Shown here piece after piece: positions 48,377 through 49,117 of a stretch of 64,000 nt of DNA. Within the stretch, counting starts at the first letter, position 1. Every line of letters starts with the position of its first letter. The DNA comes from Escherichia coli (GTDB taxonomy: Bacteria > Pseudomonadota > Gammaproteobacteria > Enterobacterales > Enterobacteriaceae), in the NCBI RefSeq assembly GCF_003334315.1, contig NZ_QOWR01000007.1. One strand, given 5' to 3'. A model generated the notes under the pieces. The model worked only from the letters and a program-made list of their open reading frames with translations. It ran no database searches and was not told the origin of the DNA. The position numbers and the translations under genes were made by a program.

Positions 48377-49117
48377 ATGTTAGATCAAGTATGCCAGCTT
48401 GCACGGAATGCAGGCGATGCCATTATGCAGGTCTACGACGGGACGAAACCGATGGACGTCGTCAGCAAAGCGGACAATTCTCCGGTAACGGCAGCGGATA
48501 TTGCCGCTCACACCGTTATCATGGACGGTTTACGTACGCTGACACCGGAGATTCCGGTCCTTTCTGAAGAAGATCCTCCCGGTTGGGAAGTCCGTCAGCA
48601 CTGGCAGCGTTACTGGCTGGTGGACCCGCTGGATGGCACTAAAGAGTTTATTAAACGTAATGGCGAATTCACCGTTAACATTGCGCTCATTGACCATGGC
48701 AAACCGATTTTAGGTGTGGTGTATGCGCCGGTAATGAACGTAATGTACAGCGCGGCAGAAGGCAAGGCCTGGAAAGAAGAGTGCGGTGTGCGCAAGCAGA
48801 TTCAGGTCCGCGATGCGCGCCCGCCGCTGGTGGTTATCAGCCGTTCCCATGCAGATGCGGAGCTGAAAGAGTATCTGCAACAGCTTGGCGAACATCAGAC
48901 CACGTCCATCGGCTCTTCGCTGAAATTCTGCCTGGTGGCGGAAGGGCAGGCGCAGCTGTACCCGCGCTTCGGACCAACGAATATTTGGGATACCGCCGCT
49001 GGTCATGCTGTGGCTGCAGCTGCCGGAGCGCACGTTCATGACTGGCAGGGTAAACCGCTGGATTACACTCCGCGCGAGTCGTTCCTGAATCCGGGATTCA
49101 GAGTGTCTATTTATTAA
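48377..49117 (+). CDS. cysQ: 3'(2'),5'-bisphosphate nucleotidase CysQ
   Basis: 246 aa, inositol-monophosphatase fold ([12 protein letters not shown]). Confidence 0.93.

Follow-up and report, generated by a model that had tools for sequence, protein, structure and literature searches.

Two questions are raised by the junction of cysQ and ytfJ in the Escherichia coli genome studied here: whether the absence of ytfI, which lies between these genes in K-12, reflects a loss or a state that preceded its arrival, and how two transcripts that converge without a spacer may end. The analyzed window is a stretch of 64,000 nucleotides from contig NZ_QOWR01000007.1 (assembly GCF_003334315.1), to which all positions refer unless another locus is named. 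Our main conclusion, held with a probability of about 0.9, is that the overlap of the two genes is ancestral and that the window strain never received ytfI, which would be an old Escherichia insertion at the stop-codon junction that rewrote the end of ytfJ; that each of the two mRNAs extends antisense into the partner gene; and that a hairpin designated H2 is the likeliest 3′-end signal of cysQ.

Organization of the cysQ–ytfJ junction

The cysQ gene (48377–49117, + strand) encodes a 3′(2′),5′-bisphosphate nucleotidase of 246 amino acids, which is 99% identical to CysQ of K-12, and ends with a TAA codon at 49115–49117. The ytfJ gene (49107–49664, − strand) encodes a YtfJ family protein of 185 amino acids with the C-terminus ..LLHKLINK; its TAG stop codon was read directly in the window as CTA on the + strand at 49107–49109. 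The genes form a convergent pair in which each stop codon lies within the reading frame of the partner. The shared 11 bp, CTATTTATTAA (49107–49117), are translated as S-I-Y-stop in the cysQ frame and as N-K-stop in the ytfJ frame. Since the overlap is set by the two stop codons alone, the choice of start codon has no effect on it, and because the stops overlap, there is no room for a gene between them. Thus, the convergence with an 11-bp overlap and nothing in between, which the initial annotation had described, is borne out by both stop codons.

The gene boundaries were taken from the list of open reading frames and from the PGAP annotation of an identical stretch in CP53, an E. coli from pig faeces, to which the 1,288-bp cysQ–ytfJ query was 100% identical and in which PGAP annotated the same 11-bp overlap. 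An error of assembly or annotation confined to this one sequence has a negligible chance of accounting for the overlap and the lack of ytfI: the overlap rests on two stop codons read directly, and such an explanation is refuted by the recurrence of the junction in 3,801 complete genomes and, independently, in 74 species-level assemblies.

The ytfI segment of K-12

In a K-12-type O16:H48 genome (locus L001), the gene order was cysQ–ytfI–ytfJ, in agreement with the placement given in the initial annotation, with cysQ at 3001–3741, ytfI at 3953–4891 (+ strand, 939 bp, 312 amino acids), and ytfJ at 4954–5508 (− strand). A blastn comparison showed that homology of the window to this locus stops right after the cysQ stop codon and restarts within the 3′ end of ytfJ, with the break at 49117/49122 in the window corresponding to 3741/4967 in L001. 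The empty insertion site in the window is the 4-bp TTAA at 49118–49121, which is replaced in K-12 by 1,225 bp (L001 3742–4966). The YtfJ protein of K-12 has 184 amino acids and ends in ..LLQKLLK, compared with 185 amino acids and the ancestral ..NK in the window. This alteration of the K-12 C-terminus is due to the ytfI segment, which replaces the last codons of ytfJ.

The segment contains ytfI as its sole open reading frame. It resembles a genomic islet in its deviating composition (GC content of 31–37% vs. about 50–61% in the flanks) and in its distribution, being patchy within E. coli and absent from all non-Escherichia loci among the best 80 loci retrieved. Signatures of mobility were not detected in the K-12 segment, in which we found no integrase and no clear target-site duplication or convincing terminal repeats. 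In a divergent Escherichia (locus L006), a perfect 12-nt terminal inverted repeat (ATTAATTCCATA / TATGGAATTAAT) was located at 4557–4568 and 5779–5790, exactly at both ends of a divergent ytfI insert. The repeat was found in this allele only, without a counterpart in the K-12 allele, and may either have arisen by chance, the DNA being AT-rich, or be a relic of the mechanism of insertion.

A search for known domains in YtfI gave no match in Pfam, even at E ≤ 10, and no family in NCBIfam. A PADLOC match to Cas6b (E = 8e-4), in which no stretch passed alone, was taken as noise. Among 5.8 billion proteins searched with a word index, all homologues of YtfI came from E. coli or Shigella, and HMMER, run in full over 1.84 billion cluster representatives, returned YtfI fragments only. 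On the evidence of these searches, ytfI is an AT-rich, Escherichia-restricted orphan gene. A divergent recombination block around ytfI of K-12 was also considered and rejected, as sliding identity was 95–99.8% across 39–60 kb, with nothing special at the junction; a dip in identity to K-12 at 46.5–48 kb is partly explained by a duplication in cpdB.

The presence/absence polymorphism of ytfI is already published. Higashi et al. (2016, PLoS Genet, PMC4720273, S10 Fig) presented ytfI as a specific, H-NS-bound sequence inserted between cysQ and ytfJ in K-12 and lacking in strains SE11 and SE15. H-NS binding at ytfI of K-12 spreads over cpdB, cysQ, ytfJ, and ytfK and is absent in SE11 and SE15 (PMC4720273). 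The locus and the polymorphism are the same as those described here, and SE11 and SE15 share the layout of the window. The published case, however, served to illustrate the spreading of H-NS, whereas the frequency of the segment, the outgroup polarity, the breakpoints, and the effect on the YtfJ C-terminus come from the present analysis.

Frequency and origin of the two arrangements

Alignment across the cysQ/ytfJ junction was uninterrupted in 3,801 of 5,426 complete E. coli genomes; the window therefore represents the majority state. The ytfI segment was found in 1,623 of these genomes (about 30%), in 1,604 of them over ≥80% of its length, and in one carrier it contained an IS1 element. Since the carriers include O157:H7 and O55:H7 in addition to MG1655, ytfI is not confined to the K-12 lineage.

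The outgroups were examined with YtfJ as a query against one genome per GTDB species, and both stop codons were located in each of the best 80 loci, all from Enterobacteriaceae. The stop codons of cysQ and ytfJ overlapped in 74 of the 80. The overlap was 11 bp in 40 loci (Escherichia, Citrobacter, Salmonella, Klebsiella, Raoultella, Kosakonia, and Pseudocitrobacter), 7 bp in 28 loci (Enterobacter, Lelliottia, Leclercia, Pluralibacter, and others), and 4 bp in 6 loci (Kluyvera, Trabulsiella, and Yokenella). Within the 11-bp group, the core CTATTTAYTRA was conserved, and four Escherichia loci outside E. coli proper were among the overlapping ones. Taken with the 3,801 contiguous E. coli genomes, these data show that the arrangement is conserved rather than accidental. 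The near-universal occurrence of the overlap in the sampled part of the family, together with the indel-free alignment of the window junction to the empty sites of E. whittamii, Escherichia sp. E1V33, and Citrobacter and with the retention of ..NK in YtfJ, indicates that the overlap is ancestral for the family and that ytfI is an insertion.

The initial annotation had offered two possibilities, an insertion of ytfI in the K-12 lineage or its deletion in the present strain. The overlap in outgroups and the collinearity of the sites support the first with respect to the insertion itself, and the attribution to the K-12 lineage proved too narrow in view of the 1,623 carriers. The second, in which the E. 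coli ancestor already had ytfI and the lineage of this strain then lost it by deletion, is very unlikely. It draws some support from the age of the gene: E. coli alleles of ytfI are 96–100% identical to that of K-12, a divergence similar to that of the core genome, and the divergent Escherichia locus L006 has at this site, flanked by the same hairpins, an allele of 69% identity, so that ytfI has evidently been in the genus for a long time. A loss, or a replacement by an empty allele through homologous recombination, is also plausible for individual strains. The window junction, however, can be aligned base for base with the empty sites found in E. whittamii, Escherichia sp. E1V33, Citrobacter, Salmonella, and Klebsiella, and a blastn comparison revealed no ytfI-derived bases left in it. 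A spontaneous deletion would have to recreate exactly both the ancestral 185-amino-acid YtfJ and the 11-bp overlap, and if the short direct repeats bounding the insert had served for a deletion, another junction would have resulted.

The sequences flanking the site also differ between the two arrangements. The right flank in K-12 has the ancestral GAGCAAC, as in E. whittamii, compared with AATTAAT in the window, and an intermediate form, AAGCAAT, occurs at locus L007; this difference indicates that the two haplotypes are old. We considered the E. coli empty site (TTAATTAAT vs. the ancestral TTGAGCAAC) as a possible scar of ytfI excision and rejected it on the basis of the intermediate TTAAGCAAT at L007, the identical lengths of the sites, and the different junction that a direct-repeat deletion would leave. 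The empty site of the window at 49113–49122, ATTAATTAAT, is a perfect 10-nt palindrome that includes the cysQ stop codon. Relative to the remaining Escherichia empty sites (TTGAGCAAC), it has four substitutions within 7 nt, and one of these replaces Leu by Ile in YtfJ.

According to the reading of ytfI as an insertion, the segment would have entered an old Escherichia haplotype precisely at the junction of the two stop codons and would have rewritten the last codons of ytfJ in doing so; it now segregates in about 30% of complete E. coli genomes.

Hairpins flanking the overlapped stop codons

With overlapping coding regions, both mRNAs must continue antisense into the opposing gene. The earlier proposal that each convergent transcript ends within the partner holds by geometry, as each mRNA must reach its own stop codon. 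Two hairpins that fold on both strands, H1 and H2, are located one on each side of the overlapped stops, each within 25 nt of them.

Hairpin H1 (49085–49101, CTGAATC-CGG-GATTCAG) has a 7-bp stem, occupies cysQ codons 237–242, and lies 5 nt downstream of the ytfJ stop codon on the − strand. On the + strand, a T-rich run comes after it, still upstream of the cysQ stop codon, and H1 was the only terminator-like site on that strand at the junction in a consensus scan. Termination at this site would give a non-stop cysQ mRNA, since H1 and its T-run precede the stop codon. The predicted fold is weak (−8.2 kcal/mol, z −0.5), and we detected no excess synonymous constraint at H1. In most other genera, a different 5-bp GC hairpin (CCCGG-CTT-CCGGG) is located 4 nt further on. 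H1 was rejected as a conserved structure on the grounds of this difference in register between Escherichia and the other genera and of the lack of excess constraint.

Hairpin H2 (49126–49150, TGCAGCAGG-TCCATCA-CTTGCTGCA) begins 8 nt downstream of the cysQ stop codon, within ytfJ codons 172–180, and is a candidate 3′-end stem-loop of cysQ. It consists of a 9-bp stem with one G.T pair and a 7-nt loop, and on the + strand it is predicted to fold as a stable GC-rich stem-loop (−14.6 kcal/mol, z −2.8). The stem is followed by CCUCUUCCUG, without a U-tract, and H2 is therefore not a canonical intrinsic terminator. Rfam covariance models gave no match at the junction, the sole match within 47000–51000 being ES239 (48188–48310). 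The literature searched contained no paper that mentions both cysQ and Term-seq.

The conservation of H2 was evaluated in an alignment of 75 sequences (74 distinct). Six stem pairs were invariant, and the loop and the neighboring synonymous sites were variable. One pair varied (GC in 68 sequences, AU in 3, and GU in 3), with all changes within Escherichia, which points to a single evolutionary event. The GU form, which occurs in E. coli, allows pairing in the cysQ-sense (+) RNA only, since the other strand then carries a C.A mismatch. Among 119 conserved degenerate columns of ytfJ, three codon columns had zero entropy, and all three are located in the H2 stem. The entropies of the five stem codons were 0, 0, 0, 0.26, and 0.43 bits, compared with a median of about 1.0–1.2 elsewhere, and these codons were outliers relative to the other conserved Leu, Gln, and Val codons of both genes (Mann–Whitney p = 2e-4). 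From these comparisons and from the hairpins of the separated loci described below, we estimate a slightly better than even chance that H2 is the 3′-end stem-loop of the cysQ mRNA.

The same conservation might instead reflect the amino acids of YtfJ (V-Q-Q...L-L-H) combined with preferred codons, or a function in the ytfJ mRNA or as a DNA palindrome, with the cysQ and ytfJ transcripts being ended mainly by Rho in the untranslated antisense stretch. We regard this explanation as somewhat less likely than not. GTG, CAG, and CTG are the commonest Val, Gln, and Leu codons in these genomes; the H2 stem codons are thus also preferred codons, and part of their invariance could be due to codon bias. 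A few other Leu and Gln columns are nearly invariant too (entropy 0.11). In addition, untranslated antisense RNA is a classical substrate of Rho, H2 has no U-tract, and its covariation amounts to one compensatory event only. On the other hand, the five stem codons remained outliers when the amino acid type was controlled for (p = 2e-4), the loop between them varies freely, and the G.U intermediates fit the + strand only. A further argument against this explanation comes from the lineages in which the two genes are separated, as each of them has a strong hairpin right after cysQ, which is twice an H2 copy or H2-like.

Reuse of the junction by other cargo

The cysQ and ytfJ genes were separated in 6 of the best 80 loci. 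The spacer of the divergent Escherichia locus L006 (1,230 bp) carries the divergent ytfI. In E. albertii NBRC 107761 (L008), a spacer of 1,504 bp with 33% GC encodes a 385-amino-acid pentapeptide-repeat protein with weak matches of the PipB2/SopA type. The spacer of Citrobacter youngae ATCC 29220 (L044, 2,120 bp) contains genes for a TIGR04222 membrane protein and a radical-SAM/SPASM enzyme, and spacers of about 905 bp in two Kluyvera species (L061 and L062) contain a DD-carboxypeptidase-like open reading frame, which is intact in L061. The 71-bp spacer of K. intermedia (L069) has no open reading frame. As judged from these loci, there were at least four independent events at one stop-to-stop junction, with unrelated cargo in at least three lineages besides that of ytfI.

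Weak matches (E = 4e-5 to 4e-3) link the pentapeptide-repeat region of the E. albertii protein (L008 4792–5949, 33% GC) to the type III effectors PipB and PipB2 and to a HECT-type E3 effector model, and this protein may be an uncharacterised effector. In C. youngae (L044 4676–6631), the TIGR04222 membrane protein has a Cys/Gly/Ser-rich tail, and a directly repeated stretch of about 35 bp, with hairpin H2 inside it, borders the insert on both sides.

A strong hairpin (−18 to −27 kcal/mol, z −2.3 to −5.9) starts 5–15 nt past the cysQ stop codon in each of the six separated loci. The one in C. youngae duplicates H2 exactly, and that of Kluyvera is H2-like (GCAGCA...TGCTGC). Combining these observations with the conservation of the stem, we tentatively propose, at somewhat less than even odds, that the 3′-end signal of cysQ is H2, written in the opposing ytfJ coding sequence and near-invariant at synonymous sites across the sampled Enterobacteriaceae genera. 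The junction would at the same time be a recurrent landing site for cargo of one or two genes (ytfI in Escherichia, the pentapeptide-repeat protein in E. albertii, the radical-SAM pair in C. youngae, and the DD-carboxypeptidase-like gene in Kluyvera), each insertion supplying or duplicating a replacement hairpin for cysQ.

Possible mode of transcript ending and comparison with known systems

If H2 acts in this way, it would set the 3′ end of cysQ either as a pause or termination element of the kind found at convergent pairs or as a barrier that stops 3′ exonucleases. H1 may act likewise for ytfJ, more weakly, and Rho or collision of polymerases would deal with read-through.

Compared with a canonical intrinsic terminator, H1 has the short stem-loop and the T-rich run, and H2 has a GC-rich 9-bp stem. 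However, the T-run of H1 precedes the cysQ stop codon and H1 is energetically weak, whereas H2 lacks a U-tract. Stem-loops are said, in work by Dar and Sorek, to define stable 3′ ends after Rho-dependent termination and trimming by exonucleases. H2 and the post-cysQ hairpins of the separated lineages would fit this description, as predicted hairpins without a U-tract located shortly past a stop codon.

Bidirectional terminators between convergent E. coli gene pairs were reported by Ju et al. (2019), and are summarized by Wang et al. (bioRxiv 10.1101/2022.10.23.513370) as a class unlike intrinsic terminators. The cysQ/ytfJ junction shares with them the convergent pair and a palindromic stem-loop at the boundary that is able to form in the RNA of both strands, and H2 is likewise unlike an intrinsic terminator. 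In contrast to these elements, H1 and H2, as candidate members of the class, lie within the coding sequence of the partner and not in an intergenic spacer, and H2 of E. coli pairs better on the cysQ-sense strand (G.U vs. C.A).

Other features of the window

Several further features were observed in the window. In cpdB (46224–48187, − strand), a 20-bp imperfect tandem duplication at 47342–47361 shifts the frame after about codon 276, and the open reading frame from the start region of the gene has 289 codons for amino acids, compared with 647 in K-12. The cpdB gene of CP53 is marked as frameshifted by PGAP. A 60-mer spanning the duplication was found in 146 of the 5,426 complete E. coli genomes, so that cpdB looks like a lineage-wide pseudogene. 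The cpdB–cysQ intergenic region, directly upstream of cysQ, contains a full-length match to the Rfam sRNA ES239 (48188–48310, + strand, 154.5 bits, E = 3e-31).

A 7.9-kb segment at 31367–39292 has no counterpart in K-12, in which about 1.1 kb, including a TetR-family remnant pseudogene, occupies this position. The segment includes six open reading frames on the − strand, which encode an MFS transporter, an FrdA/NadB-like flavoprotein, a FadX-like CoA-transferase, an enoyl-CoA hydratase, an unknown 280-amino-acid protein, and an SDR 3-ketoacyl reductase, and an intact TetR-type regulator is located at 39022–39693. The segment is probably a catabolic cluster lost by K-12. K-12 has the chpS–chpB toxin–antitoxin pair in 634 bp between ytfP and ppa; the window lacks this pair and has 128 bp of unrelated sequence (58784–58911) instead.

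Implications

The window shows a core locus in its ordinary ancestral state, which carries little weight beyond housekeeping. For the cysQ/ytfJ locus, K-12 represents the derived and not the reference state, and the C-terminus of its YtfJ is a by-product of the ytfI insertion. The small additions made here are the embedded, synonymously constrained hairpin H2 and the reuse of the junction. If H2 sets the 3′ end of cysQ, the locus would provide a compact, naturally replicated model of how the transcription of convergent overlapping genes ends and of constraint at synonymous sites, with empty sites, ytfI-filled sites, and sites with three other cargos as material. If H2 is such a signal and the junction is also a landing site, the locus would illustrate cleanly, in nature, how a terminator-type element constrains the codons of its neighbor and how such a junction tolerates the gain of genes.
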